DNA from: a candidate division FCPU426 bacterium
GTDB taxonomy: Bacteria; Oederibacteriota; Muellerivitia; Muellerivitales; Muellerivitaceae
DNA length: 64,000 bases
NCBI GenBank assembly: GCA_963771075.1
Contig: CAVYSE010000024.1
Location: forward strand, 115,867-179,866
Direction of reading: 5' to 3'
Part shown: piece by piece, positions 15,511-43,920 of the stretch
Layout of the letters: every line of letters starts with the position of its first letter
Numbering within the stretch: position 1 is the first letter of the stretch
Program-made: the position numbers and the translations under genes
Notes under the pieces: model-generated
What the model saw: only the letters and a program-made list of their open reading frames with translations
What the model was told of the DNA's origin: nothing
Databases searched by the model: none

Positions 15511-15841
15511 GGGTCGAGGCCCCAAGCCGAGACACATGACTTGATTGTGCCGATTCCAGACGGGAATCGGTTAGCGAAGGATTTGGCAATTGGCGTGATC
15601 ACCGAGGCTTCGGCCTGTCCGCCGTAGCCTTGGCGAAGGTGGAAGCTTCTGGAGCATTTCCGGCTGCTTGGATTGGTTTATCTTAGCTGGCTGCCGACTG
15701 TCTCCTGCCTCGAACCAACAAGCTTTTGCATTGAGGCTTCATGCCGAAATGCATGTTTTAAATGTCCCGGAACAAAAGTTAAAAGGTTCCGGGGGTGAGA
15801 GGCATGGTTTGGTGATCCCAATTGCCTTTGTGCAATTGGGG
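15511..15841 (+). repeat. Two copies of the two-hairpin repeat (GA orientation); second has a 77-nt loop insert
   Basis: gggtc-GA-ggc-cccaa-gcc-GA-gacac at 15511; gcctc-GA-acc[15717-15793]ggt-GA-gaggc; each followed by TTGRT and a hairpin. Confidence 0.8.
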
Positions 15842-15856
15842 CCGACTGGTTTTTAG

Positions 15857-15952
15857 ATGAGACTTTACTCCGGTTCCTCCGCGCAGTTCATCCAGGATTT
15901 CACCCGCAACCAGATTGCCGATAAGCTCAAAGATTCCTTTTTCAGGTATTTT
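15857..15952 (+). pseudogene. N-terminal remnant resembling a DUF2075 (Schlafen-like helicase) protein
   Basis: Translates MRLYSGSSAQFIQDFTRNQIADKLKDSFFRYF, then runs into repeats. Confidence 0.55.
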
Positions 15953-16066
15953 TGCTGCGGATTGCCGACCTGGCCGCAGAAGCTTTAGCGTAGGCGTGCC
16001 TGTCGTCTGATGGTTTTCCTGTCGACTGTCGACCGCGGACTGTCGACGGGTGTATATAATAAGTCC

Positions 16067-16357
16067 ATGAAACCGATCAAAATACTCGCGAAAAACAGAA
16101 ACAAAATCCTCGAACTAGCCCGTTTACACGGCGCCACCCGGGTCCGGGTTTTCGGCTCCGTCGCGCGGGGAGAGGCCGACCGTAAAAGCGACATTGATTT
16201 TCTCGTCCAAATGGAACCAGGCCGCACTCTTCTGGATATGGGGGCGCTGTTAATGGATCTGCAACGAACCCTGGGGCGCCCGGTCGATGTGGTGACGGAA
16301 AAAGGCCTTAAGGACCGTATCCGTGAAAAGGTTCTCCGCGAGGCGGTGCCTCTGTGA
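16067..16357 (+). CDS. MNT nucleotidyltransferase antitoxin (MntA-like)
   Basis: VFGSVARGE....SDID.LV; overlaps HEPN gene. Confidence 0.92.
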   Translation: MKPIKILAKNRNKILELARLHGATRVRVFGSVARGEADRKSDIDFLVQMEPGRTLLDMGALLMDLQRTLGRPVDVVTEKGLKDRIREKVLREAVPL

Positions 16358-16752
16358 GGGATTTAAGGGTGCGGATCCTGGATATGCTGGACGCGATCGA
16401 ACGCGTCGAGAAATACGTCTCCCAGGGCCGAAAAGCGTTTGAAACGGATGAGTTGATCCAAGTATTTATCGTGCACCATCTCCAAATTTTGGGAGAAGCG
16501 GCATATAAAATCCCCCCCGGGTTCCGTAAGCATTATCCTGAAATTCATTGGGATTCCATTCAAGGCATGCGCCATATCCTGGTCCATGATTATTTCCAGG
16601 TTGATCTGGACGTGGTCTGGGGGGTGGTGGAAAAAGACTTGCCTGATTTGAAACAGAAACTCCAAGATATTCAATTTCCAACCGCCCAAGAACCCCACGC
16701 CGTTTACAAGGCTGGTAAAGCCAAAAAGGCAAAAGCTAAAAAACGCAAATGA
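16354..16752 (+). CDS. HEPN/DUF86 toxin (HepT-like)
   Basis: ILGEAA, GMRHILVHDY (RX4H), VDLDVVW. Confidence 0.92.
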   Translation: MRDLRVRILDMLDAIERVEKYVSQGRKAFETDELIQVFIVHHLQILGEAAYKIPPGFRKHYPEIHWDSIQGMRHILVHDYFQVDLDVVWGVVEKDLPDLKQKLQDIQFPTAQEPHAVYKAGKAKKAKAKKRK

Positions 16753-16902
16753 TGTGATGTTGCTAATACCTAAAAGCCAACCGCTAGATGCAGTTAGCAG
16801 ACCGCAGTTCGCAGCTAGCAGCTAGACTTGGTCACCTTTCCTGCGGACTTTCGTCTGATGGTCTCCCTGTCGACTGTGGACTGCGGACTGTCGACTGGTG
16901 TC

Positions 16903-17382
16903 TTGCATGGTTTGCAGGAATTCAATGATGCCAAACTGATCTTGCCAAGCTCTAAGCGAGATTGGCCTAAATGCGAGAACCTGGAAGAGAGATATAATCA
17001 GTTCCGCGCAAGTTAAAGGCTGACTTTTGAATCAAAATTGTTGTACCCGCCGAAGCCGCCTGTCCGCCGAAGCCTTGGCGAAGGAGGATGGCGAAGGAGG
17101 ATGGCGAAGGTGGATGGCGAAGGAGGATGGCGAAGGAGGATGGCGTAGGAGGGCCCAAACAGGAGAACCTTGAGGAAAGGTATAATCAGTTTCGGGCAAG
17201 TTGATGATGATTATGAATTGGGACCTAAAATGGTGAATGGGGGCCTGACCCTTTTTTCTCTTTGTATCTTCGAGCTAGCGCTTACGAACTGTGGTTTGCT
17301 GACTGGTGTTATATAATCAGTTTCGCGCGAGTTGATATTCGATATTTAGAAAATTAATAAATGATGACTGAACCCATTCACA
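16903..17382 (+). repeat. Direct repeat copy 1 (HNH gene 3' end plus downstream block)
   Basis: Matches 19020-19460; encodes LHGLQEFN...EERYNQFRAS*. Confidence 0.9.
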
Positions 17383-17432
17383 CTAAATCGGGGGAACTCC
17401 ACCTTTGTTCCTTCTAAGCGGGAGAAAATCAA

Positions 17433-18059
17433 ATGCGACTTAAATCTAAATTTGTTGTTTTACTGGTAATCCTATCAACCCTTGTTATGGGTTGTGTAAC
17501 GACAAACACTGAAAGTGTTATTAATCCTGATTTCCAAGGTAATTATTACCGAAAAATATTGGTATTAGCTTGTTTATCTGATATTGGGTCACAGAAAACT
17601 GTCGAAAATCATGTAGTTGAAAAGCTTCAAGCGTATGGGATTAAGGCGGTGCCGAGCTACACTTTTTTCTTTCGCGGCGATGAATTAACGGATAAACAAA
17701 AAATAAAGAAAATTCAATCAGCTGGTTTTGACGCTATTCTTACAATCAAATTTACAAATTCCTATACAACGGATGTTTATGTCCCGCAGAATACCTATAC
17801 AAGTAACAGTACTTATGTGACGCCTTATGGGTTCAACAACAAACAGTCGACCTATCAAACAGGTGGTTATTATTTATCTCAACCAAATTTCGAAATTAAT
17901 TCACAACTTCAGGAAACAAAAAAATACAAAGTGGTTTGGACAAGCGACTCGGATAGTCATGGTTGCGAAATTTGTGACTTTTCAAGAATTATGGGTTCTT
18001 TCGCTGACTCGGTCGTTACCAAAATGGCTGGAGATGGTGTATTAGGGGAACTTCCGTAA
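17433..18059 (+). CDS. AT-rich putative lipoprotein
   Basis: Lipobox LVMG-C; visibly lower GC than neighbours. Confidence 0.75.
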   Translation: MRLKSKFVVLLVILSTLVMGCVTTNTESVINPDFQGNYYRKILVLACLSDIGSQKTVENHVVEKLQAYGIKAVPSYTFFFRGDELTDKQKIKKIQSAGFDAILTIKFTNSYTTDVYVPQNTYTSNSTYVTPYGFNNKQSTYQTGGYYLSQPNFEINSQLQETKKYKVVWTSDSDSHGCEICDFSRIMGSFADSVVTKMAGDGVLGELP

Positions 18060-18221
18060 CCCACCCCAAAACCAAGTGTCGATAATAATCCGGATGAGTG
18101 ATTAAAAGTGCCTATCTGTTAGTTTGTTGAAGAGAGATTTGGTGATAAAACACACTAATTATTTCTTGGTCTTAACGCCTAATTCCTAACTCCTCCCCCC
18201 TAACTGTCCTAGAATGCTTCT

Positions 18222-19133
18222 GTGACCTCTCTTGACCAACAAGTTCGGCTCAAGGCTTTTGACCTCCTCAAACAATTGCAATCCATCTATGGGGACAACA
18301 TACCCCGCGCGTTATTGGAAAAAGGGTTTGAATTCGAGGGGCGTAAAGTACCTTTAATCGGCCCCCAGGGCATCTTTAAACCCGCCATCCTTCCTGAAAT
18401 TCCCATCAGCATCACCACCGCGCCGATCGTGGAGGGGCGGCCACGGCCTTATGACGATTCTTCCGAAGATGGGTATGTGAAGTACAAATACCGGGGGACC
18501 GACCCAGACCATCATGAAAACGTGGGGCTTCGGAAGGCCATGGTGCAAAAGATACCCTTGATTCATTTTTATGGGGTGGTTCCAGGGATCTATACCGCCG
18601 TTTGGCCTGTTTACATCGTGGGGGATAACCCCAAACAACTCACCTTTACCGTGGCGGTGGACCAACCTGACCATCTATATGAAGGCGAAGAGAAGGTCGT
18701 GGATTTTGCCGCCGAATCCAGGCGTCGATACCAGACCGTTGAAACCCAAATGAGGCTTCACCAGGCGGGTTTTCGCTATAAGGTCTTAAAAGCCTATGAA
18801 GAAAGTTGCGCCATCTGCCATTTGAAGCATACCCAACTCTTAGAAGCGGCCCATATTCTTCCTGATACCCACCCCAACGGCTTACCCATTGTCGTGAATG
18901 GCATTTCCCTTTGCAAAATCCACCATGGGGCCTATGACAGCAATATCATTGGAATCCGACCCGATTATGTGGTGGAACTGAAGAGGGAAGTGATGGAAGA
19001 GAAGGATGGCCCCATGCTTTTGCATGGTTTGCAGGAATTCAATGAAGCCAAGATGATCTTGCCCAAATCCGAGAAAAACTGGCCCAAACGTGAGAACTTG
19101 GAAGAGAGATATAATCAGTTTCGCGCAAGTTAA
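18222..19133 (+). CDS. HNH endonuclease (putative restriction-type)
   Basis: Q..FR..VL.AY..CAIC, LEAAHI, NGISLCKIHH.AYD. Confidence 0.9.
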   Translation: MTSLDQQVRLKAFDLLKQLQSIYGDNIPRALLEKGFEFEGRKVPLIGPQGIFKPAILPEIPISITTAPIVEGRPRPYDDSSEDGYVKYKYRGTDPDHHENVGLRKAMVQKIPLIHFYGVVPGIYTAVWPVYIVGDNPKQLTFTVAVDQPDHLYEGEEKVVDFAAESRRRYQTVETQMRLHQAGFRYKVLKAYEESCAICHLKHTQLLEAAHILPDTHPNGLPIVVNGISLCKIHHGAYDSNIIGIRPDYVVELKREVMEEKDGPMLLHGLQEFNEAKMILPKSEKNWPKRENLEERYNQFRAS

Positions 19134-19460
19134 GCGCTGACTTTTGAAGCGAAATTGGTTTACCCGCCGAAGCCGCCTGTCCGCCGAAGCCTTGGCGAAG
19201 GAGGATGGCGAAGGAGGATGGCGTAGGAGGGCCCAAACAGGAGAACCTTGAGGAAAGATATAATCAGTTTCGGGCAAGTTGATGATGATTATGAATTGGG
19301 ACCTAAAATGGTGAATGGGAGCCTGACCCTTTTTTCTCTTTGTATCTTCGAGCTAGCGCTTACGAACTGTGGTTTGCTGACTGGTGTTATATAATCAGTT
19401 TCGCGCGAGTTGATATTCGATATTTAGAAAATTAATAAATGATGACTGACCCCATTCACA
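19020..19460 (+). repeat. Direct repeat copy 2
   Basis: Matches 16903-17382 with fewer TGGCGAAGGAGGA units. Confidence 0.9.
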
Positions 19461-19534
19461 TTCGGATTTGACGGGCGTTCGCCAAGAGGCTTCTAAAGTG
19501 TAAAATGTAGGCCTGGCCCCTTTCTTCTTCGACA

Positions 19535-19793
19535 GGGGGGAGATGGGCGGCTATTCTTTACAGCTTGGTAGCCTCGTGTAAACGACACAAGATTGACCCT
19601 TACTTTTATCTACGGGATGTTATTAGCCGGGTAAAAACTCATCCCATGAGTCGGATTCGGGAATTACTGCCCGCCACCTACATGCCCGGCCCCGCTCCGG
19701 AAGCGCCGATATTCCAGACTGCCAAGCCCGAGCTTCCTCAAAAAACGCAAAACATACTTGCCCTTCCATGAAATGGCGTAACCCGACAGTTAC
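19535..19793 (+). mobile_element. IS66-family transposase C-terminal remnant with probable right end
   Basis: AAILYSLVASCKRHKIDPYFYLRDV...ELLP; ends ...ACAGTTAC. Confidence 0.75.
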
Positions 19794-19883
19794 ATTTATC
19801 GAAGCATGACATGTGTCATACAGGGAAAATGTTTTCCTTCCTATTATTAAAACATTGTTTATTTTTTTGGGAGGAGGCTTTTT

Positions 19884-21104
19884 GTGAAAACTGCACACGT
19901 CGTTTTGGCTTTATTCTTGATAGGCACCCTCACTGCACTCTTCAACATCACCGGTTGCGGCAGCCCCACATCACCCGCTCCAACGCCAACCCCTGCGCCC
20001 ACGAATACTCCATGCGGTTTTCCGGGCAATACCTGCACACCGACCTTTACCAGTACCTACACCTTCACCGGCACCTACACCATGACCTTTACCGCGACCA
20101 ACACGCCGACTGTCACCAACACGAAAACCCTCACCTTCTCGCCGACCATCACCAACACGCCGACGAACACCAATACGCCGACCTTCACGACGTCGCCCAC
20201 CGATACCTGGACCCCCAGCAACACTCCCACCATCACGATGACCGCGACCATCACCAACACCCCCACCAACACTCTTTCGCCGACGATCACGAATACGCCT
20301 ACGAATACGCCTCTGGTGACCAATACCTTCACCTCGACCAATACCGTTTGCGCTACCAATACAAACACTCCGACCCCGGGAACGAACGGGATCTCCTTTG
20401 CGGGCACGGCCAGCTGGACCGGGACCGGTTCGGTGAGCAGCAGCTATCCGATCTTCATCAACGCTTTCGTTCAGAATGCCGGGGACAGCGCGTTACATGC
20501 CCAAGTCACCACCAGCGGGGGGCCCTATACGATCGTCGGATTGGCATCGAGCACGACCTATACCCTGGTGGCCTACTATGGTAATTCCAGTACTTATAGT
20601 TGGCCGCCTCCGGCCGGGGTCTATGCCGCCCTCTATGGGACGTCCACCTGTAATGTCGCCAACTCCACTCAAGAACCCTCTTCCGGTTCCGTCGTTGGAT
20701 TGAACTTCTCTTTTGGGAACTCCAACCAGATCAGCGCCTTCTCGGGGGCCGTCAACTACTCGGGAAGTATGGGAACGGTGGATCAGTGCCACCAGATCTA
20801 TATCCTGCAGTTCCCGGCGGGCACAGGTATTTCGGCTATCAAGTCGGGCGCCACTTGGAACAATGACACTCATCTCAATCATAACGGCAACACCTTCGAC
20901 ATGGTGTCGAAGGATGCAACCAACAGTGTTTGCAATACCCAGACGGCGGACCTGCTGATCTTCTATGACGCGGCTGGAACGGGGAGCAGTAGCCCCCAAA
21001 CGGGTGATCCCTATACCTTACTCGGCAGCGCGTCCTCCGGCACCTCCGCGACGACCGATAGCGCGTCTTTTGACGACACCAACATCTATTCCAGTTTTCT
21101 CTAA
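19884..21104 (+). CDS. Thr/Pro-rich lipoprotein
   Basis: Lipobox ITG-C, long TPTxT linker. Confidence 0.8.
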   Translation: MKTAHVVLALFLIGTLTALFNITGCGSPTSPAPTPTPAPTNTPCGFPGNTCTPTFTSTYTFTGTYTMTFTATNTPTVTNTKTLTFSPTITNTPTNTNTPTFTTSPTDTWTPSNTPTITMTATITNTPTNTLSPTITNTPTNTPLVTNTFTSTNTVCATNTNTPTPGTNGISFAGTASWTGTGSVSSSYPIFINAFVQNAGDSALHAQVTTSGGPYTIVGLASSTTYTLVAYYGNSSTYSWPPPAGVYAALYGTSTCNVANSTQEPSSGSVVGLNFSFGNSNQISAFSGAVNYSGSMGTVDQCHQIYILQFPAGTGISAIKSGATWNNDTHLNHNGNTFDMVSKDATNSVCNTQTADLLIFYDAAGTGSSSPQTGDPYTLLGSASSGTSATTDSASFDDTNIYSSFL

Positions 21105-21284
21105 TGGAAAGCGCTTTTAAGTTCGTTTACCCTGTTCTTAAGGCGATCGAAACCGTCAAAAGCTCTCATCACGGACTTTATAATACCCGCAATGACCTCT
21201 CAGGGGGATAAGGCGGCAAAACCGGTAATTTCAGGGGTTACAACTTAGAACCTATAACAAAACCCCAAGGCAAAGGCAATTTTC

Positions 21285-21386
21285 ACCGCCAAGACGCCAA
21301 GGAGGCCTAAAGCCAAGCCTTTGATTTTAAGGATTTTCCAACTTATTGTTTTTTGTCGTTCTTGGCGAACTTGGCGTCTTGGCGGT
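21285..21386. repeat. 17-bp inverted repeat element
   Basis: ACCGCCAAGACGCCAAG (21285) / CTTGGCGTCTTGGCGGT (21370). Confidence 0.8.
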
Positions 21387-21419
21387 TAAACAGGTTTTGT
21401 TAGAGCTTATTAATAAGAA

Positions 21420-23391
21420 CTACCGCGTCACCACGATCTTGAGGTCCTGGTGGCCGATCAGCCCGCCCTGGGCGTTGTGGGCTTCCACAATCGCGAAATA
21501 GATTCCGCTCGCCACTCCCGACGCGTCCCATGAAGCCGTGTTGGCTCCCGACGCGCCTGCCACGTTTCGCTTCACCAACTCGCCCGCCGCGTCATACACC
21601 CGGTATACCAGCGTCAGGCTCTGGGCCGAGTCCGAGATGAACTGGACGTTATACCCTGTCGTTGGATTCATCAGGTTCGGCCTCGCGGTGATGTTCCCCA
21701 TCCCCGCGTTCGCCGTATCCGACATCACCATCACGTGCGCCGTCAAGATCGTCTCCCCGCCCTGCCCGTCCTGCGCCGAAACCTCGATGTAATACTGGCC
21801 CGACGCTACCACGGCTCCATTATCGCCTGTTCCGTCCCAAATGATCGTCGTCCCGTTGTTGAGCGAAATCGTCAATTGAGTGGGTACGTTCCCCGTCACC
21901 GGCCCGCTGGTCGGCTCGATACCGGTCGCCGACAACTGCAGTTGGGTTGTGTTGGTCGGTCCCGGGTTGCTCGTGTAGGTGTACAGGTTCTTCACCACTT
22001 CCCCCGCTTCGTTGTAGATCTTCACCGCCACCTTGTACACCGACCGGTTCACCACAATCGGCTGGGTCACGCTCGTGTCCGCCCCCATGTTGCTCACGCT
22101 GTCGATCTTCACGTAATACTGCCCGTTCCCCACCGGGTTCCCCGCCGTATCCAGCCCATTCCAGGTCCCGATCGGGGTTCCCAGGTACTCGATCGTCGTC
22201 GTGCTCCCGGGCCCGCTCACCGCCGTGATCGCCCCGGAGTTCAGGGTGAAACTGTTGATCGCCTGCGAATATTGGCTCACCGGCAGCGACTCCACCAACT
22301 CGCCCGCCTCGTTGTAGACCCCGATCTTCACCGTGTACTGCCCTGTCGTCAGCACGTTCACGCAGGCCGTGGCGGATCCGCCCGTGAAACTGGCCGTCGC
22401 GCAATTCACGATCGTCAGCCCTCCCGCCACCAGGTTGTTTACCGTCGCCTGGTAGGTCATTGTGTACACTCCCGGGGACAGGGGCGACGGCATTTGCCAG
22501 CTCATGATCGAGGTTCCCGCGTTGTAGCTCGTGGACGTACCGCCCGGCGCGGTCCCGAAAGACGAGAAGGTCAGGTTGGTCGGCAGTTGGTCCGTCACCA
22601 CCATGTTCATCACGTTGTAGTTCGAGACGTTCAAGGTCAGGGTATAGAGCAAGGTGGATCCCGGGCTGGTCACCGAAGTGGATACCTGCTTGGTCAACTG
22701 TACAAAGCCCAGGGGGGTCGCGGTGGCGGTCGTGGTGAAGGTGGGGGTGGCGGTCGCCGTCGGGGTCACCGTCGGCGTATGGGTATTCGTGGGGGTCATC
22801 GTATAGGTCGGGGTCGAGGTGTAAGTCTTGGTGGAAGTCGATGTGGACGTGTCCGTGGGTGTCCCCGTATCGGTCGCCGTATGGGTCGAGGTGGGCGTGT
22901 TCGTCGCCGTCCAGGTATCGGACGCGGTCGCCGTATCGGTGGCCGTGTTGGTCGCCGTAGGCGTGTTCGTAGCGGTAAAGGTGTTGGTTTCCGTCGGAGT
23001 ATAGGTTGCGGTGTAGGTGAAAGGTGGCGTTGCCGTAAAGGTCGGGCTGTTGGTTGGGGTCAAGGTATTGGTCGAAGTGGGTGTGTTGGTAGCCGTATAG
23101 GTATTGGGATGGATTTCGCAGGAGGGAGTGTCGGTGAAAAAGGGGGTAAAAGATGAAGTTGGAGTCGGTGTTCCGCTGGGAGTCAAGGTATCGGTCGGGG
23201 AGTTCGTCCTGGTTGGGGAGAGGGAAGGGGCCTTGGTGAGTGTCGGGGTCGAGGTCATGGTAGGCGTGGCCGTAAAAGCGCTCATAGGAGGCGAAGTAGG
23301 AGTAAAGGTGAATGTGGGCGTAGCCGAAGGCGTATAAGTCGCTGAATAAGCGGGAGTCATCGTCAGCGTGCTGGTTGGTGTGGAGGAACAA
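21420..23391 (-). pseudogene. 5'-truncated Thr/Pro-rich exported protein with DUF11-like and three FlgD/T9SS-CTD-like domains
   Basis: C-terminal ~430 aa paralogous to 48776..53221; no signal peptide; frame runs into repeat at 23392. Confidence 0.75.
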
Positions 23392-23505
23392 GTAACCAAG
23401 GGGTCTGGCCTACACATTACACGTTAGGTTATATCACCCCACAAAACCAATTTCTTTTTGGGTTGTCCGGTTTACGATCACCCGTGTTTGGTTTCACTAC
23501 AATCA

Positions 23506-23573
23506 TCCTAATTCCCAATTGGAATTTGGACTACCAAGGCTTGTCCCTCACCTTGAAAGTTCGGGACAGGTGG
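23506..23573 (-). repeat. Two-hairpin repeat (second copy 24488-24555)
   Basis: tcctaattcc/ggaatttgga-ct-ACCAA...gtccc-TC-acc-ttgaa-agt-TC-gggac-AGGTGG on + strand. Confidence 0.8.
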
Positions 23574-23651
23574 CTTTTTCATTTACAGCATCCAACCTCA
23601 AGCGCAAACTGAAGTGGTAAGAAGAACCTTTTTGAAGAAAGGAAAATTCTT

Positions 23652-23882
23652 ATGCGCAAATGGTCAAAGGGTGATATCCGATTCACCCTGCAACTCATGG
23701 ACATGAAGTCCATTGACCTTTCGGAAGATTACATCCGCAAATGCGACCCCGACCTATACAAAGCGGCCTGTTCCAAAAGACGCTTTGGCAGTTGGCGCGC
23801 TGCCCTCATCGCATCCGGAATCGATTACGAAAATGACCTGCTCTTCCGCGTCCCGCCCGAAAATCGGCTTTCAACTCCTTAA
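23652..23882 (+). CDS. Small protein resembling homing-endonuclease-associated repeat
   Basis: LY.AA...RFGSW.AAL..SG. Confidence 0.6.
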   Translation: MRKWSKGDIRFTLQLMDMKSIDLSEDYIRKCDPDLYKAACSKRRFGSWRAALIASGIDYENDLLFRVPPENRLSTP

Positions 23883-23973
23883 GTAGGTAATACCCAATCA
23901 ATTAGGTAATGAATTAGGTAATGTGATAAACTTTACAAGATTGGTTCGAACCCCCCATTCACAAGGAACAGCG

Positions 23974-24372: not shown

Positions 24373-24633
24373 CGTAACCAAGGGGTCTGGCCTACACATT
24401 ACACGTTAGGTTATATCACCCCACAAAACCAATTTCTTTTTGGGTTGTCCGGTTTACGATCACCCGTGTTTGGTTTCACTACAATCATCCTAATTCCCAA
24501 TTGGAATTTGGACTACCAAGGCTTGTCCCTCACCTTGAAAGTTCGGGACAGGTGGCTTTTTCATTTACAGCCTCCAACCTCAAGCGCAAACTGAAGTGGT
24601 AAGAAGAACCTTTTTGAAGAAAGGAAAATTCTT

Positions 24634-35332: not shown

Positions 35333-35346
35333 TTGGGAGGAAAACC

Positions 35347-35532
35347 ATGCCGAAAGTTAAATTAAAGGCTGATATCTACAAGATCATATCGCGAGCCGTA
35401 GAGGGGGGAATTGCTTACGGCTGGAACCGCGCCCACAAACACACAGATAACCCTAATGAAGAATCAATCAAAGAAGAGATCGAAAAAGCCGTCATGAATG
35501 AGATTTGTGCCGTCATCAAAATAGACTCATAG
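35347..35532 (+). CDS. Small hypothetical protein (paralog of 33416)
   Basis: Highly similar 61-aa translation. Confidence 0.7.
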   Translation: MPKVKLKADIYKIISRAVEGGIAYGWNRAHKHTDNPNEESIKEEIEKAVMNEICAVIKIDS

Positions 35533-35635
35533 GCCCCCTGCAAAAGAACCTCTCTTCTAAAAACATCAATAAATCATAATATTGATGCTATAATATATCA
35601 TCAAATAGTAGCTAATAATGATGATGGGGGCAGAT

Positions 35636-35869
35636 GTGCGAACAACCATTACGGTCGAGGATGGGGTGATGGAAAAGCTGATGAAATACACCAAATCCAA
35701 GACACAAACGGAAGCGGTGAACCGCGCCTTGGCGGACTGGGTTCAAAACCAGAAGCTGGAGAAATTAAGATCGCTGCGGGGAAAGCTTTCTATCGATGAT
35801 AACTGGGAATCGTTGCGCGCGTTGGAAATTCAAGAAAACAAGGCGACCTATGGCAAGCGTTCTCGTTGA
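35636..35869 (+). CDS. vapB: VapB-type antitoxin
   Basis: MRTTI...TEAVN.AL...L..LRGK; upstream of PIN gene. Confidence 0.85.
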   Translation: MRTTITVEDGVMEKLMKYTKSKTQTEAVNRALADWVQNQKLEKLRSLRGKLSIDDNWESLRALEIQENKATYGKRSR

Positions 35870-36356
35870 TACTTCGGTATGGGTGGACTATTTCCGCAAG
35901 GGTGAAAGCCCGGCCGCTCTCCTGCTGGACCTGCTGATAAAAGAAAAAATGGCGGTTCTTTGCGGGATCGTGGAATTAGAACTTCTTCAAGGCGTGCGGC
36001 CCTCTGAAAAAGAGCCCCTGCAAGAGCTTTTGACCGCCCTCCCCTATGTTGAAACCGAAAGAACCGATTTTCAAAAGGCCGGGGACTTGTTGCGCGAATT
36101 AAAGGCCAAGGGTGTCCAGATCCCCGCGACGGATGGGATGATTGCCGCCCTTTGCGTACGCCACAGACTCTCGCTGCTCACTTTAGACAAGCATTTCGAC
36201 CATTTTCCCGACGTTAAAAAGATAAATATCGATGACCATCATTGGAAAGCCATGCAGGAAGAGGCCGCGCCCTACGCCCTCGCCAAAGGCGTGAGGACTG
36301 AGCAGGATGTGGAAAAACTGATTCGGAAGAACCGAAACCCTAAGCGCCCTTCATAG
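35850..36356 (+). CDS. vapC: VapC PIN toxin with C-terminal extension
   Basis: LVDTSVW, ELLQG, D..IAA, T.DKHF. Confidence 0.9.
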   Translation: MASVLVDTSVWVDYFRKGESPAALLLDLLIKEKMAVLCGIVELELLQGVRPSEKEPLQELLTALPYVETERTDFQKAGDLLRELKAKGVQIPATDGMIAALCVRHRLSLLTLDKHFDHFPDVKKINIDDHHWKAMQEEAAPYALAKGVRTEQDVEKLIRKNRNPKRPS

Positions 36357-36424
36357 ACAGCCATTAACCTTTAGCTCTTAGCTTTTAGCCGAAATTAAGC
36401 CACCCATTAATAAAATGACTCAGG

Positions 36425-37126
36425 ATGGAAATGCCCGAACAGATTCTTCTCCAAGATTTAAAGATCGAAGTAACCCTGAAGAACATCCGGAACATGCACT
36501 TGCGGGTATACCCGCCGGACGGGCAGGTGCGGGTCACGGCCCCCATCCGCATGGACCCCGAAAAGATCCGCAAGTTCGCCCTGTCCAAGCTCGAATGGAT
36601 CAAGCGCCAGCAAAAACGCATCCGGGAAGGGGGCTGGGCGGCCCCGCCGGAATACAAGGAAGGCGAGAGCCATTTCGTTTGGGGGAAGGCCTATCCGCTG
36701 CAGGTGGGGGAGGGCGGGGGGCGGAACCGGGTGGAATTACGGGATGACCGGCTGGTCCTGCGGGTTCGAAAGGGCGCGGGAGCGCGCAAGAAAAAGGCCC
36801 TGGTCGCCGGGTGGCACAAGGAACTGGTGAAGACTGCCGTGCCTCCCCTGGTCGCCAAGTGGGAACCTCGGGTGGGGGTTCAAGTGAAGGGCGTCTCCGT
36901 GCGGCACATGAAAACCCGATGGGGAAGCTGCCACACCCAAAAAGGCACGATCCGCTTGAACGCCGGCCTGGCCCAAAAGCCCTTCGACTGCCTGGAATAC
37001 GTGGTGGTGCACGAAATGGTTCACCTGCTGGAACCCTCCCATAACGCCCGCTTCAAGGCCCTGATGGGGAAGTTCATGCCGCAATGGAAGAACTTTAGGA
37101 AGCAGCTAAAAGCAGTTGGCAGGTGA
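36425..37126 (+). CDS. M48/YgjP-like (DUF45) metallopeptidase
   Basis: MKTRWGSC, YVVVHEMVHL...H..RF. Confidence 0.92.
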   Translation: MEMPEQILLQDLKIEVTLKNIRNMHLRVYPPDGQVRVTAPIRMDPEKIRKFALSKLEWIKRQQKRIREGGWAAPPEYKEGESHFVWGKAYPLQVGEGGGRNRVELRDDRLVLRVRKGAGARKKKALVAGWHKELVKTAVPPLVAKWEPRVGVQVKGVSVRHMKTRWGSCHTQKGTIRLNAGLAQKPFDCLEYVVVHEMVHLLEPSHNARFKALMGKFMPQWKNFRKQLKAVGR

Positions 37127-37285
37127 CAGTCGACGGTCGACAGGAACAACCACTAAAGACTGTCCACAGTCGACAGTCCACAGTCGACAGTCCGCAGTTG
37201 GCAGGGAAACAAAAACAAACAACCCGAAGTCGACGGTCGACTAATGTTTTGCTGTCGACTGTGGACTGCCGACTGTCGACTGCTT
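37124..37285. repeat. Heptamer (CAGTCSA) tandem repeats in inverted arrangement
   Basis: CAGTCGACAGTCCACAGTCGACAG ... CTGTCGACTGTGGACTGCCGACTGTCGACTG; relatives at ~16020, 16868, 26455, 27415, 29586, 30787, 34458, 34785. Confidence 0.8.
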
Positions 37286-37287
37286 TT

Positions 37288-38157
37288 CTAGAAACTCATT
37301 TCCACCGACAGTCCCCCGTCCACGCCCGAGTAGTCCAAGTTGGCGTAGCGGAACTCGCCGGGGATGGAATCAATGGCCCCGTTGGGCACCGGCACAATCT
37401 CGTTGTAGCCCGCGCCCGTGTTAAAGACCGCCAGCGAATAGGGGCCTTTCGTTTTCAGGTCCTCGTAATAGCCGGAAAGATCCGAAGCCTGGATCCTCGA
37501 AAAATTCACGTAACGCCCCCGCACGAACAGGTCCAGGCCGAAGGTGGGGCTGATTTGCACCTGTTCGCAAAGGCCCACCGTGCCGCCGGCCGTATCCCCC
37601 GTCAAGGCGCCGTTGATGGCGACCCCCTGCTGGGCGGGGTTGGAATAGGTCACGTTGTCAGAGTAGTCCACGATGGCGTGGTAGTAGCCCGCTCCCAGGG
37701 AAAGGGTGGTGCGGTTTCCGGGGCCCTGGAGGATGTCGAAGGAGTATTCGAGGGACAGGTCCGCCAGGTTGGGGCCGATCAACTGGTAGGAATCGCTGGT
37801 GGCGCTGTGTTGGGCGAAGGTATCCGCCTGGGAGGAAATCACCTCGAAGTGCAGGGAAAGTTCGCTGGAATCATCCAGCCTCCTGCCCCAGGCCGCCCCC
37901 AGCAGGATGCCGCTGTTGTCGGTACTGACCCCCACGGTGGAACCCAGGCTTTGGTAATAGGCCCCCATGGATTTGACGCTCGTGAGGATGTCCCCAAACA
38001 TGGAATAGTCGTATCCCCCGTAGAGGCTGAAGGAATCGTTTCCACTTGAAAAGAGGTCGGCGGAATAGCCTTTATCCAACGCGGGCTTGGCGGACGCCAG
38101 CGCCGGCAGGATCAGAAACCAAAGGGCCCAGGCGAAAAACAGCGGATGCTTTATCAT
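37288..38157 (-). CDS. Probable outer-membrane beta-barrel protein
   Basis: Signal peptide, amphipathic strands, terminal Phe. Confidence 0.65.
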   Translation of the reverse strand: MIKHPLFFAWALWFLILPALASAKPALDKGYSADLFSSGNDSFSLYGGYDYSMFGDILTSVKSMGAYYQSLGSTVGVSTDNSGILLGAAWGRRLDDSSELSLHFEVISSQADTFAQHSATSDSYQLIGPNLADLSLEYSFDILQGPGNRTTLSLGAGYYHAIVDYSDNVTYSNPAQQGVAINGALTGDTAGGTVGLCEQVQISPTFGLDLFVRGRYVNFSRIQASDLSGYYEDLKTKGPYSLAVFNTGAGYNEIVPVPNGAIDSIPGEFRYANLDYSGVDGGLSVEMSF

Positions 38158-38258
38158 TATTTAGCTCCCCTAAAAATGATGAATGACCGGCTCTTCTAAA
38201 TAGCGGAAAAGGGAGCGAAAAAGAAAGGGGGTGGGGAAATAAACCAGTCCGAAGTTGG

Positions 38259-38590
38259 CCCCTATTGCCATAGCAATAGGGATTACCAAATCACACCACT
38301 CGGCTTGTGGCCTCGTGGTAGGTGGCCCCTATTGCCATAGCAATAGGGATTACCAAATCACACCACTACCAACTGCCATTGGCAGTTGGTACAACCAAAT
38401 CCCAGCCCTCACCTGGTTGGTTCGGGACAGGTGTCGGCTTGTCCCAATCGTTTGTACCGATTGGGATCACCAAGTCTACCTCTCACCTTGAAGGTTCGAG
38501 GAAGGTATTGGCTCGGGACAGTTGGCCCCTATTGCCATAGCAATAGGGATTACCAAACCTCGTTGTTCGCCTTGTAGGCTCACAACAGGT
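38259..38590 (-). repeat. Heterogeneous tandem array of about five two-hairpin repeats
   Basis: Units at 38259, 38326 (cut), 38367, 38442 (nested), 38526. Confidence 0.9.
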
Positions 38591-38846
38591 TACAGTCCAC
38601 AGGGAAACTACTAGAACCAGCCGACAGGGAAGGCTCAAAAGCATTACCCGGATCAGCGCCCAAAATCTTGAAGCCCAGATCGACGGGGTAGCGGCCAAAA
38701 GGTTCGGTCGGCCTTCATTAAATCCAAATAAAATGATTGGGGCAGTCTTGAATACGCCATCATCAGCCAATATAGTTTCGCTCAATCGAAATCGACCCTG
38801 GCCTTAAGGGTTCCTTTTCGAGAATCTTTCGAACCACTAGGGCCGT

Positions 38847-39404
38847 ATGAAAATACGACATGGGCTTCTTCTCCTGATCCTCCTTTCCGGCGGTCCGTTG
38901 CGGGCGGAGCCCGCCGCGTCCCCCACCCCTTCCCCCCGGACCTTCTATTTGGAGCTGGGCGAGGGCATGGACCTGCCCGTGAACGGCTGGCAAAGCGCCT
39001 ATTCCCTCGCTCCTGATTTCAAGTTCGCCGCGGGTTATGCCCTGGACCCCCATTGGGCGATCCAACTGGACCTGTCCACCGCCCTTTTCTTCGGGATTAA
39101 CGCCACGGGGCGGATCAGCGACCAGGAAGTCCTGGTCCTCCCCATGATCCGTTATCAATTCGAGGGTGATCCCTTCCGGCCCTATCTCTTGGCGGGCTTC
39201 GGCGGGGAATTCGAGCTTCTTTCGAGCCCGCCTTCCGGCGCGACCGTTGCCGATTTCGACGGGGCGCTCGGCGCGGGCGTTGAGACGACCCTGTATCGGG
39301 GGTTCTCCCTTTTCGTGGAAGGAAAATATAACTGGATCTTTTCCTCCAAGGTGGCCGGCCAAGACCTGCCGCTGTGGGTGGGCGTTCACGGGGATATGGA
39401 TTAA
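38847..39404 (+). CDS. Small outer-membrane beta-barrel protein
   Basis: Signal peptide, RPYL.AG.G, GAGVE, FVEGKY. Confidence 0.75.
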   Translation: MKIRHGLLLLILLSGGPLRAEPAASPTPSPRTFYLELGEGMDLPVNGWQSAYSLAPDFKFAAGYALDPHWAIQLDLSTALFFGINATGRISDQEVLVLPMIRYQFEGDPFRPYLLAGFGGEFELLSSPPSGATVADFDGALGAGVETTLYRGFSLFVEGKYNWIFSSKVAGQDLPLWVGVHGDMD

Positions 39405-39416
39405 AGGAGACCGGAC

Positions 39417-40928
39417 ATGAAACGTGCGATCATCTTTCTGGCGCTGGGCCTTCTGCTCGTGTTCGGCTTCCAGGCCTGCAACAACACCAAAAATTATCCC
39501 GCCAGCCCCTTCACCTCCCTGGCCCTCACCCCCACGAACACGGTCCTTTTGACGCCCCCGACCGTCACCCTGACCCCCACGATCACGGCCAGCCGCACCC
39601 CCACGAACACGCCGACCATCACCCTGACCGCGACTTCGACCGCCACCCCGACTTCCACATCGACGCCCACCCTCACCCAAACCCCGTCCGTGACGCCGAC
39701 TTCCACGGCCACTTCCAGCCCGTCGATCACCCTGACCTTCACGATCACGAACACCGCGACCTTCACCTCGACGCCCACTATCACCCAAACCCCGACCGTG
39801 ACGCCGACCTCCACGGCCACTTCCAGCCCGTCGATCACCCTGACCTTCACCACCACGAACACCCCGCCCCTCACCTCGACCCCCACCGGGACGCCCACTT
39901 CCACCCAGACCCTCACCTTTACTCAATCCCTTACGCCCACCGATTCGGCCACTTTCACCCCAACTTCTTCCTCAACCGACACTTACACCGAAACCTTCAG
40001 CCCGACCCTGTCGAACACGCTTACGGTCACCCCCACTTTTACCCACACCACCACCCGAACGGGCACTCCCACCTCGAGCCCCACCCAAACCTCCACGGCC
40101 ACGGCGACTTCGACCGCCACCTTCCATTTCTTGAGCGGGGGTTCCTGGTCCAGCAATACGCCCTTCGGCCTGGCCTGCAACCGGGGAACCAGCGTGGTTT
40201 ATGTGGCCCAACCCGGTGATGTGGATGTGTTCAATTCGATCGCCAACTTCAGCTCGCCCGTCTCGACCTGGACCCAATATGGAGGCACGGCCTTCAACTT
40301 GATCCAGACGCAGGCGGTCAATCCGCTCAATGAGAATATCTATATCGTGGATGGCGGGGTGGGTGTGGTCTATCAAGTCACTTCCGGCGGGGCCGCGGTG
40401 AACAAATCCTCCACGGCCTTTAACGCGATCCAGGACGTGGAAACCGATTCCAGCGGCAACGCCTATGTGGTGGACCAGGGCGGCGCCACTCTCTATGAGC
40501 TCAATTCCAGCATGTCGGTCGTGAAAACCTGGACGGGCGCCGGCGCCACCGCCTTTTCAAGCCTCTACTCGGTGGCTTTGGACCCGTCGAACAACATCTA
40601 TGTTTGCGATAACGGGGCCGCCCCCGGCCACAACCACATCTGGGAAATGAACTACTCCGGGACCGTGCTTAATACCTGGAACACGCCGGTGGGGAACTTC
40701 ATCTACCAAATGTGCGTGGACGCGAGAGGGACCGTTTATGCCGTTGATCAGGGGGTGGTGGGGCTGGAAGAATATGTCCCGGGGACCGCGACGCCCGTGC
40801 ACACCTTTACCGGAACTGAAGGCGGGGGCACCGCCTTTTCGGCTCCGGACGGTGTGTGTTTTCTCCCCAACGGCAATCTCCTGGTCGCCGACTACGGCAC
40901 GAACCTTCTGCAGGAATATGTCCCCTGA
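39417..40928 (+). CDS. Thr/Pro-rich lipoprotein with NHL-repeat propeller
   Basis: Lipobox FQA-C, TPT linker, D.SGN.YV.D repeats. Confidence 0.85.
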
Positions 40929-41200
40929 TACGCGGCTTCCAGCCGCGTATCGCGCCTAGGGAGTGCCGATTCAAACAAGAATCGGCGCCCTGATCCGAGC
41001 CTTCAAGGCGAGGATCAAACCTAGGGAGTGCCGATTCAAACAAGAATCGGCGCCTTGATACGCGGCTACCGGCCGCGTATCGCGCCTAGGGAGTGCCGAT
41101 TCAAACAAGAATCGGCGCCCTGATCCGAGCCTTGTCCCAATCGTTGGTACCGATTGGGATCACCAAAAATTCCCCTCACCCTGAAGGTTCGGGGTAGGAG
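40927..41200 (+). repeat. 65-bp-period array of two-hairpin repeats; fourth unit interrupted by an inverted unit
   Basis: Starts at 40927, 40992, 41057, 41122; inverted unit 41134-41200. Confidence 0.9.
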
Positions 41201-41282
41201 ACAGTGAACCGACAGCCATTGGCTATTGGTTTTTTGCCACGACTGAAAACACCCTGTTGAAAACGCTTTACGGTTTAAAGGT

Positions 41283-41780
41283 TTATCTCTTGCGGCGGGG
41301 GGACGGTTTCTTCTTCTTCCCTTTTACTTTGTAGAGGGCAGGCGCTTCCCGGGCTTGGGGTTCTCCCATGGGGGGGCCATCCAGTTCAGCCAAGAAGGCC
41401 GCCGGGTCCAAAATTCGGATGCCCCGGTATTCATGAAGGGATAGCAGATGGGCATCCCCGGAAATCAGGACCTCCGCCTGGGCGGCCAGGGCGCATTCCA
41501 AGACCCGGTCATCCGATGGATCAGCCTTGATGACCTGCAGGCGCTGGGTGGGATACACCATGAGGCACAATTCCCGGATCTCGCGCTCATAAACTCCCAA
41601 TTGATCGGGTGAAGAATTGAACTTGCGGCCCCCGAGGATTCGAAGCGTTTCGGCAAGAAGATCGGTTGAGATCGCCACTTCGAAAACCCTCAGGATCGCA
41701 TGGTCCAACAATTCACGAACCCGGCCCCTGAAGGCCAGGGCCGAGACCCAAATATTGGTGTCGAAAACGACCCTGATCAA
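41283..41780 (-). CDS. PIN-family toxin
   Basis: VVFDTNIWVSA, DPSDDRVLECA, ISGD.HLL. Confidence 0.9.
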   Translation of the reverse strand: MIRVVFDTNIWVSALAFRGRVRELLDHAILRVFEVAISTDLLAETLRILGGRKFNSSPDQLGVYEREIRELCLMVYPTQRLQVIKADPSDDRVLECALAAQAEVLISGDAHLLSLHEYRGIRILDPAAFLAELDGPPMGEPQAREAPALYKVKGKKKKPSPRRKR

Positions 41781-42013
41781 GTCCGGCGGGCTTCCCGGAT
41801 GGCCTCTTCCACATCCTCGGGTTTCAAACCCAGGCGACGGACATGGGCATCCATCTGCTCGAAAATTTTGTCCCAGCGGGAACGCCGATCCAAGTAGATC
41901 CGCAGGGCCGCGCGCATCAACTCGGAACGGCTGCGGGATTCCCTCTTGGCGAGCTTATCCGCCCGTTCAAGCAGGTCCTTGGGGATCGAAAGGTTGATGG
42001 TCGATGGTTTCAT
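41777..42013 (-). CDS. CopG/RHH antitoxin
   Basis: INLSIP..L....D.LA..E.RSRSEL.R.AL. Confidence 0.9.
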   Translation of the reverse strand: MKPSTINLSIPKDLLERADKLAKRESRSRSELMRAALRIYLDRRSRWDKIFEQMDAHVRRLGLKPEDVEEAIREARRT

Positions 42014-42036
42014 GGTTTCCCTCCTGTTAAAACAAG

Positions 42037-42057
42037 CCTATACAATTATTGTATAGG
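42037..42057. promoter_or_regulatory. Probable TA operator
   Basis: CCTATACAAT-T-ATTGTATAGG perfect inverted repeat. Confidence 0.7.
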
Positions 42058-42181
42058 ATTCAATATTTGAAATCTTCCTACAACATCAGCAGGCAGTCGG
42101 GTCGGCCTTACAAAAGAACCAATAGCTGTTAGCTAATCGTATTTAGCCACAACTCGAAAGACCCCTGATCCCCCTCGTTCC

Positions 42182-42534
42182 GCACAGATTCCCTATGAAT
42201 CTGCACCGGCAACCTACACCTTCGACCTGAGGTCTCAGGTGGCCTGCACAGATTCCCTATGAATCTGCACCGGCAACCTACACCTTCGACCTGAGGTCTC
42301 AGGTGGCCTGCACAGATTCCCTATGAATCTGCACCGGCAACCTACACCTTCGACCTGAGGTCTCAGGTGGCCTGCACAGATTCCCTATGAATCTGCACCG
42401 GCAACCTACACCTTCGACCTGAGGTCTCAGGTGGCCTGCACAGATTCCCTATAAATCTGCACCGGCAACCTACACCTTCGACCTGAGGTCTCAGGTGGCC
42501 TGCACAGATTCCCTATGAATCTGCACCGGCAACC
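42182..42534 (-). repeat. 64-bp tandem repeat x5.5 (homogeneous array of the two-hairpin unit)
   Basis: GCACAGATTCCCTATGAATCTGCACCGGCAACCTACACCTTCGACCTGAGGTCTCAGGTGGCCT at 42182, 42246, 42310, 42374, 42438, 42502. Confidence 0.95.
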
Positions 42535-42829
42535 ATCGTCCTCGACTTGTCCCAATCGTCCTTAACGATTGGGATCACCAAGGCTTACCACTCGCCTAGT
42601 AGGCTCGTGGAAGGTATTGGCTCGGGACAGGTGGCAGTCCGCCCCCAATTGCCCAAAGCAATTGGTCGGGGAATTCGCCCGTCTGTCGAAGTCGCTTCGA
42701 CTTCGACACTCGACTGGCCAACGAGTGGTTGGCCGTCAGCGCAAAATGGTTTATGGAATGGTTTTTTAACAGGCCATTTGTTAGGAACTACCAAAGCTCG
42801 CACTCACCTTGTAGGTTCGTGATAGGTGG
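42535..42829 (-). repeat. Nested and insert-bearing two-hairpin repeats
   Basis: Unit 42549-42615 inside the loop of another; 42643-42829 parallels 29455-29585. Confidence 0.85.
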
Positions 42830-42899
42830 CAGGGAAGACCATAAGAACCAGTCCGCGGTACAAAATGAAGCCCGCGCAGGAAAGGATCGAGAGGCTTGC

Positions 42900-42919
42900 A
42901 GATGCATACAAATGCATCT
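42900..42919. promoter_or_regulatory. Probable TA operator
   Basis: AGATGCAT-acaa-ATGCATCT. Confidence 0.6.
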
Positions 42920-42942
42920 AAAATATATTCGAGGTGGTCCAC

Positions 42943-43182
42943 ATGCGCACAACTATTGAAATTAAAGATAAATTAAGGGCTGAGCTTCTTCGGCGGGCGG
43001 CCCACGATGGGGCGAAAGGCTTTTCCCACATCATCGAGGAAGCCTTGGAATCCTATTTTGGGAACGAAGACAAAATGGCCGCCGCTATCAAAAAAGCCAA
43101 GGAACTCAAGGGCTGTTTGAGCGCCCGCGAGGCGGAACAACTCTCCACGGAGACGCGGAAGATCAGGGAATCCTGGCGATGA
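42943..43182 (+). CDS. VapB-type/RHH antitoxin
   Basis: MRTTIEI...IIEEAL; overlaps PIN gene. Confidence 0.85.
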   Translation: MRTTIEIKDKLRAELLRRAAHDGAKGFSHIIEEALESYFGNEDKMAAAIKKAKELKGCLSAREAEQLSTETRKIRESWR

Positions 43183-43577
43183 TCATCGCGGACACGGATG
43201 TCCTCATCGATTTTTTGGCGGCCAAAGAGCCGGGGGCCAGCCGGGTCCTGGCCGAGTTGGAGGATGGTACGCTCCACACGACCGTTATTTCACGGTTTGA
43301 ATTGCTCTCAGGCGCTAAAAGCGCCAAACGCAATGAAAAGATCATGCAACTGCTTGATGCGCTTCAGGTTCTGAATCTGGACGTACCCGCCGCTGATCGG
43401 GCGGCGGAAATCAGGCGCCATCTGGATCAAAAAGGCCATGGAATCGGATTGGCCGACAGCCTGATCGCGGGGATGGCGATGGTCCATCGCGCGAACCTGT
43501 TGACCCGCAATGAACGCCATTTCAACCGGGTGCCGGGTTTGAAATTGAGCCAATGGGATGAACATGGAAAAAGTTAA
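43179..43577 (+). CDS. vapC: VapC PIN toxin
   Basis: ADTDVLIDFL, ELLSG, ADSLIAG, TRN.RHF. Confidence 0.93.
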   Translation: MIIADTDVLIDFLAAKEPGASRVLAELEDGTLHTTVISRFELLSGAKSAKRNEKIMQLLDALQVLNLDVPAADRAAEIRRHLDQKGHGIGLADSLIAGMAMVHRANLLTRNERHFNRVPGLKLSQWDEHGKS

Positions 43578-43683
43578 GAAGCTATCGAAATTATTCAAAG
43601 AGAGCCTCCGGGAGGGGATCAAGTACGCCCAGGGAAAACCCGCGAAGGTGAAGGTGGAGACACTTTATATCAAGACGACAAGC
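43564..43683 (+). pseudogene. Possible N-terminal remnant of an HTH regulator/antitoxin
   Basis: LF.ESLREGIKYAQGK then runs into repeat array. Confidence 0.4.
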
Positions 43684-43920
43684 GGCCGATTCCCTGATGG
43701 ACGTCGGTTCCTCTTTGGAACCAACACACTCAAGACTTGAACCTCGATTGAAATCTCGGTTCTAGAGGTCGGAACTGCCAAGTCACACCCCTCGGCTTGT
43801 CCCAATCGTTTGTACCGATTGGGAACACCAAGGCTTACCACTCGCCTAGCAGGCTCGTGGCAGGTATTGGCTCGGGACAACCAAAGCGTACCCCTCACCT
43901 TGAAGGTTCGGGGTAGGTGG
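43684..43920 (-). repeat. Cluster of 3-4 two-hairpin repeats, one nested
   Basis: gaacc-TC-gat..atc-TC-ggttc; accac-TC-gcc-tagca-ggc-TC-gtggc; acccc-TC-acc-ttgaa-ggt-TC-ggggt-AGGTGG. Confidence 0.85.

Follow-up and report, generated by a model that had tools for sequence, protein, structure and literature searches.

What is the short hairpin repeat that recurs along this locus, and how did it come to be there? The window, by which we mean the whole stretch of 64,000 nucleotides (nt) analyzed here from a candidate division FCPU426 bacterium (contig CAVYSE010000024.1, positions 115,867 to 179,866), had been described from its letters alone as carrying about 25–30 copies of a two-hairpin repeat, confined to 15.5–44 kb. 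Using a covariance model built from 45 aligned copies, taken from the window and from the rest of its genome (G000; 4.39 Mb in 28 contigs), we find 27 copies in the window at E<=0.002, all within 15505–43920, 22 on the plus strand and five on the minus strand, and the copies and stems quoted in that sequence-only reading are indeed found where it had placed them. The confinement holds within the window but not within the genome, in which at least 113 copies are distributed over 18 of the 28 contigs (E<=0.003; a lower bound, with 113 kept from 121 matches at E<=0.5 and 150 of 1205 candidates scored). A uniform spread would place 0.7 copies in the 28.4 kb where 27 are seen; the window holds a real cluster of copies, yet is not their sole site in G000. 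The repeat is itself a mobile unit that has spread over the genome, not merely a site bounding an island. On balance, we regard it as a non-coding unit of ~66 nt, inserted precisely at many sites and likely moved as folded single-stranded DNA (ssDNA) by a trans-acting cut-and-join enzyme reading the shape of one strand, referred to below as the GA strand.

Only for a minority of the families of small palindromic repeats (REP, RPE, BOX, and others) is the mode of spread resolved. The fold of the present repeat is defined unusually well, its ends are sharp, and filled/empty pairs are numerous; moreover, it is restricted to one family, and the usual enzymes do not track it. Besides G000, all 30 genomes of the same family carry it (1–70 covariance-model matches each, in 17 genera including that of G000), while the model finds it in none of 68 genomes that represent 22 further families of the phylum. 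An exact-pattern search of a species collection returned 29 stretches, of which 27 were upheld by the covariance model, mostly in records titled uncultured bacteria, with three titled Candidatus Firestonebacteria; the other two, in other phyla, were not confirmed by the model and were dismissed. A stricter pattern identified 65 metagenome loci that carry the repeat, and scans of viral contigs gave 0 and 1 pattern matches, the single one being rejected by the model. The sequence-only reading could not assign the second hairpin to a described family, and an Rfam scan produced no real match at gathering or E-value thresholds. A literature search, outside of which lay supplements (with possible motif tables) and most subscription journals, found no published description of the repeat.

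Fold of the repeat and the folded strand

The architecture of the unit can be followed on one model copy of the window.

31165..31230, plus strand: model 66-nt unit, TC strand, consisting of hairpin 1, a 13-nt linker, hairpin 2, and the AGGTG end
31165..31187, plus strand: hairpin 1 of the model copy, 9 bp with a 5-nt loop
31191..31193, plus strand: 5' strand of a third helix, the ACC of the ACCAA linker, with its partner at 31227–31229 (from covariation in the family)
31201..31225, plus strand: hairpin 2, with 5 bp, TC/TC (GA/GA on the minus strand), 3 bp, and a 5-nt loop that contains a near-invariant G
31226..31230, plus strand: AGGNG end, which forms the right limit of the mobile unit and whose GGN supplies the 3' strand of the third helix

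When bases are numbered on the TC strand from the first base of hairpin 2 (position 0), hairpin 1 occupies −36 to −14, the linker −13 to −1, and hairpin 2 positions 0 to 24, followed by AGGNG. Among 105 non-tandem copies, the length of hairpin 1 varies between 19 and 32 nt and is 23 nt in 49. The stems covary, as had been claimed. In the 45 training copies, 85.3% of the cells are paired, compared with 59.7% after shuffling, and in 68 distinct copies from other genomes, the alignment of which was fitted to the covariance model, the figures are 92.4% and 66.0%, with a covariation of 0.69 against 0.20 for shuffles that ignore relatedness and at most 0.15 for slid controls.

When 137 distinct copies are scanned for mutual information in an unbiased way, the pairs of hairpin 2 rank at the top, followed by two pairs that had not been proposed, −10:28 and −9:27. 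In the 218 copies (dereplicated at 90%) that serve for all structure counts, these are Watson–Crick in 178 and 201 copies, compared with 74 and 151 in shuffles, none of 2000 shuffles reaching either value, and the adjacent pair −8:26 is Watson–Crick in 211. These covarying pairs therefore correspond to a third helix, missed by the sequence-only reading, in which linker positions −10 to −8 (in ACCAA) and end positions 26 to 28 (in AGGT) close hairpin 2 across a 6-nt bulge. The whole fold thus comprises hairpin 1, then a long arm made of 3 bp, a 6-nt bulge, 6 bp, the tandem GA/GA, 3 bp, and a 5-nt loop, the G of which is conserved at 99%. The GA/GA core, reported as kept apart from a few fully paired copies, is present in 196 copies, with nine fully paired and 13 mixed. 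Changed cores are thus often fully paired, with Watson–Crick pairs at both positions in nine of the 22. Tandem G.A pairs stack like a helix.

The two strands are not equivalent. Within hairpin 2 and the third helix, 89 mismatches read A.C on the plus strand, that is, G.T on the minus strand, against 22 that read G.T on the plus strand (p=1e-10), and because pair −1:25 is TA in 117 copies and CA in 79, it is paired in 196 of 218 on the GA strand only. Hairpin 1 is without such a wobble bias (13 vs 15). The evidence supports selection on a single-strand structure, as had been suggested for this repeat, and favors the GA strand as the one that folds. The GTAG or GGAG noted just before hairpin 1, by contrast, is no feature of the family: the four bases at this place are GTGT in 60 copies and TTGT in 58, and the compatible words TAGT and GAGT occur in six copies each. 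As to the C^T at which cleavage takes place in REP/RAYT systems, a conserved CT is present at the GA-strand 5' foot (AG in 94%), but the junctions lie 2–4 nt further out.

Limits of the unit, mobility, and landing sites

The unit of ~66 nt begins at the foot of hairpin 1, or in some subfamilies 0–2 nt before it, and closes with AGGNG. Near-identical ParB-like paralogues on contigs C1 and C7 differ by 66 nt, from the hairpin-1 foot to the unit end, and, in relatives, an isoleucyl-tRNA synthetase (L041) and an AddA-like helicase (L187) contain exact 22-residue insertions when compared to their uninterrupted G000 orthologues. Such exact insertions are also found among ParB-like paralogues. The element adds 22-residue peptides to essential proteins, and its length of 66 nt allows it to survive in frame within genes. 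By joining flanks, we obtained 27 candidate filled/empty pairs for the 113 non-tandem copies that dereplication leaves, mostly with units of 62–71 nt; several of the 27 are array expansions or loose alignments. As for the proposal that the repeat is a recombination or cleavage site, the precise filled/empty junctions fit it, although it is the unit itself that moves.

The ends are asymmetric and have no terminal inverted repeats, and there is no fixed target duplication, the junction repeats varying between 0 and 10 nt. The left junction repeats the end of the element over 7 nt in L041 and L168 and over 6 nt in L171, where ACA of the linker pairs with TGT of the end. Such end-homologous repeats of at least 5 nt are found in 15 of the 113 copies of the genome set, against 3.9 expected by shuffling, while a complement of the putative guide in the left flank is not significantly enriched (18 vs 13.9 of 113). 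Copies are inserted in both orientations, in tandem (arrays with periods of 64–69), into other copies, within which they are nested, and in frame into genes. In G006, genes with near-identical 3' ends differ in the arrangement of the copies that come after them, starting on the stop codon (L163:6590-6850 and L164:6930-15120); this suggests recent activity in a genome without a Y1, reverse transcriptase (RT), or IS110 match. On contig C18, the loop of hairpin 1 is inverted between neighboring copies. Elsewhere, a weak copy ends right at the 5' end of a tRNA-Thr gene (L063:4600-4760), and there is a similar junction at the start of contig C19.

Within G000, 65 of the 113 copies are intergenic and 48 lie in open reading frames (ORFs) as called by us, 29 in sense and 19 in antisense. 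No fewer than 42 of these 48 are in a multicopy ParB-like family that accounts for 0.9% of coding DNA, and the intergenic clusters lie in islands of toxin-antitoxin genes, such as the one in the window. The TC strand is the coding strand of intergenic copies in 14 vs 7 cases in G000 (p 0.19) and in 33 vs 18 in relatives (p 0.049); for intragenic copies, it is sense in 24 vs 10 cases in relatives and in 36 vs 3 in metagenome loci (not dereplicated). Stop codons account for part of this bias, the best open frame being found in 162 vs 137 of 218 copies. Copy number follows the count of ParB-like paralogues (rho 0.69) and genome size (0.63), with kin that are not independent and counts that are lower bounds. 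At a shared ParB-like site, conservation is likewise in excess within the copy, with 57 of 66 columns constant, against 122 of 301 in the flanks. The ParB/Noc-like family (L001, L002, L004, L008, L009, L013, L019, L049, and L059) is assembled from swappable modules (N-terminal, membrane, and C-terminal), many of whose borders carry repeat copies, and one member has two tandem ParB domains.

A gene encoding a RelE-like toxin presents a peculiar case, since the same out-of-frame copy occupies the same base in seven loci (L106:2300-2790, L183:1800-2290, L188, L197, L217, L220, and L289), and five others have empty alleles (L291-L294 and L297). The flanks of the filled alleles differ at up to 62 of 392 positions, yet the copy is nearly invariant, with 70 of its 72 columns constant, compared with 271 of 352 in the flanks (p 1e-5). 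Filled alleles form two clades, one of which groups with an empty allele (support 0.90), and most changes that separate filled alleles are synonymous (17:8 and 11:7; expectation, 25%). The copy contributes a stop codon in most alleles, together with what may be a GTG restart. Three explanations could each account for this pattern, namely recurrent insertion (or transfer) at a single target, precise loss, and a protein made in two pieces. Queried with the RelE-like piece, a protein atlas gave leads under 0.9 only.

Proposed mechanism, candidate mobilizing enzymes, and rival explanations

We read the repeat as a non-autonomous ssDNA element because its fold is fixed and strand specific, its ends are sharp, without terminal inverted repeats or fixed duplication, its targets are loose, and it grows in tandem. 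A trans-acting enzyme would bind the folded GA strand, in which sheared pairs formed by the GA/GA core may mark the strand, and would cut at two places, the foot of hairpin 1 and the vicinity of the end secured by the third helix. That helix would serve like a guide sequence in holding the end for cleavage, and the unit would then be joined into new sites, probably via a single-stranded circle. Such an enzyme would cleave and transfer strands as the HUH (Y1) enzymes do for REP/BIME and IS200/IS605; for REP/BIME, cleavage and transfer of single strands are described in the available parts of two reports (PMC3333891, PMC8266576). What the data show are the fold, its strand bias, the unit limits, and the mobility; DNA rather than RNA as the substrate, the single-stranded circle, and the enzyme class are what we infer from these features.

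The repeat works like REP and RPE elements but departs from what defines them, and from what defines attC, MITE, and SRM sequences; the best reading is a mobile ssDNA element that resembles REP/RPE, is non-autonomous, and has a new fold. To judge from the portions of the reports on REP/BIME/REPIN and their TnpA-REP (RAYT) that were accessible (PMC3333891, PMC8266576, PMC3733652), there is likeness in a small hairpin repeat that is lineage wide and vertically kept, in a strand-specific irregular stem, in tandem arrays and mosaics, and in the presence of some copies in genes. In contrast to these, there is no GTAG/CGTC tag here and no flanked Y1 gene, the core is a tandem GA/GA, and the unit is a single asymmetric one of 66 nt with two hairpins and a bulged third helix rather than an inverted doublet. 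Of the REP/RAYT hallmarks, we find the strand-specific fold with an irregular stem (wobble bias, conserved mismatch core), which does not separate DNA from RNA; the GTAG/GGAG foot, a flanked TnpA-REP gene, and a Y1 gene in the copy-rich genomes G025 and G021 are all missing. Rickettsia palindromic elements (RPE), in the text available for PMC2229807, similarly insert in frame into conserved genes, add a short peptide, and have no identified mobilizer, but the RPE-1 type is 105–146 bp long with terminal inverted repeats, whereas the present unit has 66 nt, two hairpins, no such repeats, and a strand-specific covariation. The SRM/NTS repeats read as ssDNA by the small GIY-YIG protein Ssn, as far as the excerpts of PMC11893778 describe them, form a comparable system that exists in this family as well, but there the GIY-YIG genes are flanked by another repeat. 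Finally, the ends of IS200/IS605 and PATEs (in general and in the accessible sections of PMC8266576) and Replitrons (likewise for PMC10288648) are similar in having no terminal inverted repeats, no fixed target duplication, and a possible pairing of guide to end, but we found no autonomous element with the end of our repeat.

Asymmetric ends and junction repeats of 0–10 nt that are not fixed also set the repeat apart from MITEs (miniature transposable elements with inverted repeats) such as ERIC, RUP, and Correia. Intrinsic terminators are hairpins with a T run at gene 3' ends; such a distribution, named beforehand as one that would refute the proposal, is not seen, since 48 of the 113 copies lie in ORFs and, of the 30 terminator-like sites in 28.5–45 kb (23 expected), only three overlap copies. 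The core of integron attC sites reads RYYYAAC...GTTRRRY. This motif, and hence its AAC/GTT, is absent from our consensus columns, and the rule of a single, directly repeated site for each cassette does not apply either: copies are co-oriented yet irregular, many genes have no site, others contain copies, and the site itself moves. Points shared with attC, within the coverage of PMC5371416 available to us, are a single-strand shape with unpaired features, co-oriented toxin-antitoxin clusters, and a folded strand that is mostly non-coding.

Seven kinds of candidate mobilizers were considered (Y1/RAYT, IS91 Y2, integron integrase, other tyrosine recombinases, RT/group II introns, Ssn GIY-YIG, and IS110), and none tracks or flanks the repeat. 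Y1/RAYT-like matches are found in 22–23 of the 31 family genomes and RT matches in 14, and copy number correlates poorly with either count (rho 0.28 for Y1; rho 0.29, p 0.11 for RT; kin not independent, counts being lower bounds). The link to REP/RAYT drawn in the sequence-only reading is not borne out, since no Y1 gene is flanked on both sides and a Y1 match is absent from copy-rich G025 (62 copies, 89% complete) and G021 (66 copies, 99% complete). At 44 Y1 and recombinase loci, we found five copies, none on both sides of a gene, and at nine further Y1 loci none. The Y1 matches of G000 correspond to three IS200 TnpA copies and to ~320-residue proteins in elements with terminal inverted repeats, which resemble the similarly flanked RAYT-like genes in the accessible part of PMC3733652. 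There are some 17 matches to these 316–326-residue transposases (L024-L028 and other loci), often with an IS110 element at their ends, and window positions 19430–19525 are likely end remnants of such elements. For the remaining classes, IS91 Y2 gave no match in 31 genomes, with silent controls; integron integrase gave none in 31 at E<=1e-30, a weak negative because controls were silent too, and recombinase domains of G000 scored best with other models; IS110 was found in none of five chosen genomes. Tyrosine recombinase loci exist, several at tRNA genes, but without flanking copies, and 30 small GIY-YIG (Ssn-like) loci contain no copy. Small GIY-YIG genes in L260-L267, L272-L274, L276, L278, L281, and L285 are flanked on both sides by a different palindromic repeat family. 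Ten near-identical RT-bearing elements of ~2 kb lie on G000 contigs C2, C3, C4, C5, C6, C9, and C21 (L155-L162), and their insertion sites are not this repeat.

Several results weigh against movement as folded ssDNA by a dedicated enzyme. No mobilizer was found among the enzyme families searched in the 31 genomes, and no enzyme gene recurs beside the copies when neighbors are clustered in G000, relatives, and the 65 metagenome loci (in relatives, the inspection covered a part of the copies, including all 10 of G006 and ~45 of 73 of G024); the only neighbors that recur are toxin-antitoxin genes and genes for ParB-like or related membrane proteins. Neither Y1/RAYT nor RT matches are present in six genomes, including G006 (99% complete) and the copy-rich G025. 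No circle or excision product was observed, and there is no link between orientation and GC skew (42 vs 34), which is weak in this assembly. The enrichment of end-homologous repeats was not replicated in the metagenome set (1 of 58, with 1.4 expected), and homology to the target is therefore occasional rather than the rule. Moreover, the GA strand is also the better folder as RNA (157 vs 59 copies), so the strand evidence cannot separate DNA from RNA.

That the selected structure is an RNA, either a GA-strand transcript copied back by RT or a processing signal, nevertheless appears improbable to us. Better RNA folding of the GA strand in 157 of 218 copies and the existence of tandem arrays fit such an origin, as do tandem G.A pairs, which are common in RNA, but RT matches are limited to 14 genomes with a count that copy number does not follow, group II introns are flanked by other sequences, the GA strand is mostly non-coding given the TC-sense bias in genes, and Rfam has no match. 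We give very little credence to an attC-like site bounding toxin-antitoxin cassettes in integron-like arrays. It would account for copies that lie among toxin-antitoxin genes and are mostly co-oriented over stretches of tens of kb (22 of the 27 window copies, a single strand in several islands of G024 and G004) and for structure outweighing sequence with one strand favored, as is the case for attC in the text available for PMC5371416. Against this, besides the weak integrase negative and the unflanked recombinase loci, copies are lacking at the ends of most island genes, a PIN segment shared with C18 has a copy on one side only, and the unit moves alone into genes.

The gathering of copies in and before ParB-like genes could mean that this expanded family is the partner, binding hairpin 1 or recruiting a mobilizing activity. 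The 42 of 48 intragenic copies mentioned above, the correlation with paralogue count (partly circular), and the presence of a copy in 9 of 17 ParB-like loci of relatives compared with 1 of 11 chromosomal parB loci (excluding the out-of-family L142) point in that direction. Such a role is still highly improbable in our view, because 12 of the 31 genomes, including G024 with its 70 copies, have a single ParB match at E<=1e-12, and the N-terminal part has its matches in ordinary ParB/Noc DNA clamps, none of 12 solved relatives being a nuclease. It is equally doubtful that no dedicated enzyme exists and that the hairpins spread and stay symmetrical by template switching, slippage, and gene conversion. 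Tandem arrays, the inverted hairpin-1 loop on C18, short junction homologies in some copies, and the failure to find an enzyme agree with passive spread, yet template switching would mend the TC/TC mismatch that is kept in 196 of 218 copies, the 13-nt linker, the loop G, and the third helix across the bulge are all fixed, and isolated precise insertions occur in unrelated genes.

It is possible, if unlikely, that the repeat represents a novel class of minimal mobile element, a 66-nt ssDNA with its own end-pairing guide helix and sheared-GA strand marker, served by an enzyme outside the HUH, integrase, RT, and IS110 families and capable of precise return or exit at the same nucleotide. If so, interrupted genes such as that of the RelE-like toxin could be switched on and off and modules of the ParB-like membrane proteins reshuffled; were the mobilizer to fall outside known families, or precise switching to be confirmed, the element would count as categorically new. 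The search for a mobilizer is bounded to a gene present in the 31 genomes and absent from the 68 relatives. An enzyme of this sort, cutting and joining ssDNA with a substrate of 66 nt and few demands on its target, would, if new, be of interest both mechanistically and as a tool.

Copies in the window and their host island

The best explanation of the toxin-antitoxin island in the window is that it is a tolerant landing zone rather than a dedicated array. The other copies and their context are as follows.

15505..15578, minus strand: repeat copy, 60 bits
15722..15800, minus strand: repeat copy nested in another, broken copy
23500..23573, plus strand: repeat copy within a 981-bp tandem duplication
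24482..24555, plus strand: identical copy in the second half of the 981-bp duplication
29513..29586, plus strand: copy with a fully paired core (GA/TC)
29662..29718, plus strand: partial copy, hairpin 2 only
29818..29975, plus strand: two copies, the second giving the TTGACA of a promoter-like site before an antitoxin-PIN pair
38253..38592, plus strand: four-copy cluster, tandem and nested
40921..41123, minus strand: three-copy tandem array with a period of 65, from the stop codon of an NHL-repeat gene
41129..41201, plus strand: repeat copy adjoining the minus-strand array
42175..42503, plus strand: five-copy tandem array with a period of 64, a variant with a GGC:GCC third helix
42544..42829, plus strand: two copies
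43696..43920, plus strand: three copies, the last heading a PIN-gene segment common to contig C18 at 97%
16010..44499, no strand: host island, context and not element, with toxin-antitoxin and nuclease genes (MNT-HEPN, HNH, Fic, PemK, five PIN, AbiE, and a HIT fragment)

The promoter-like site at 29965–29992, which takes its TTGACA from a repeat copy, is an 11/12 match. The 981-bp tandem duplication, at 23392–25354, holds the start of a Fic gene in addition to the repeat copy, and its ends are not at the repeat. Heptamer tracts of the CAGTCGA/CAGTTCG type, found at 16820–16900, 29580–29620, and 30790–30820, often adjoin repeat copies.

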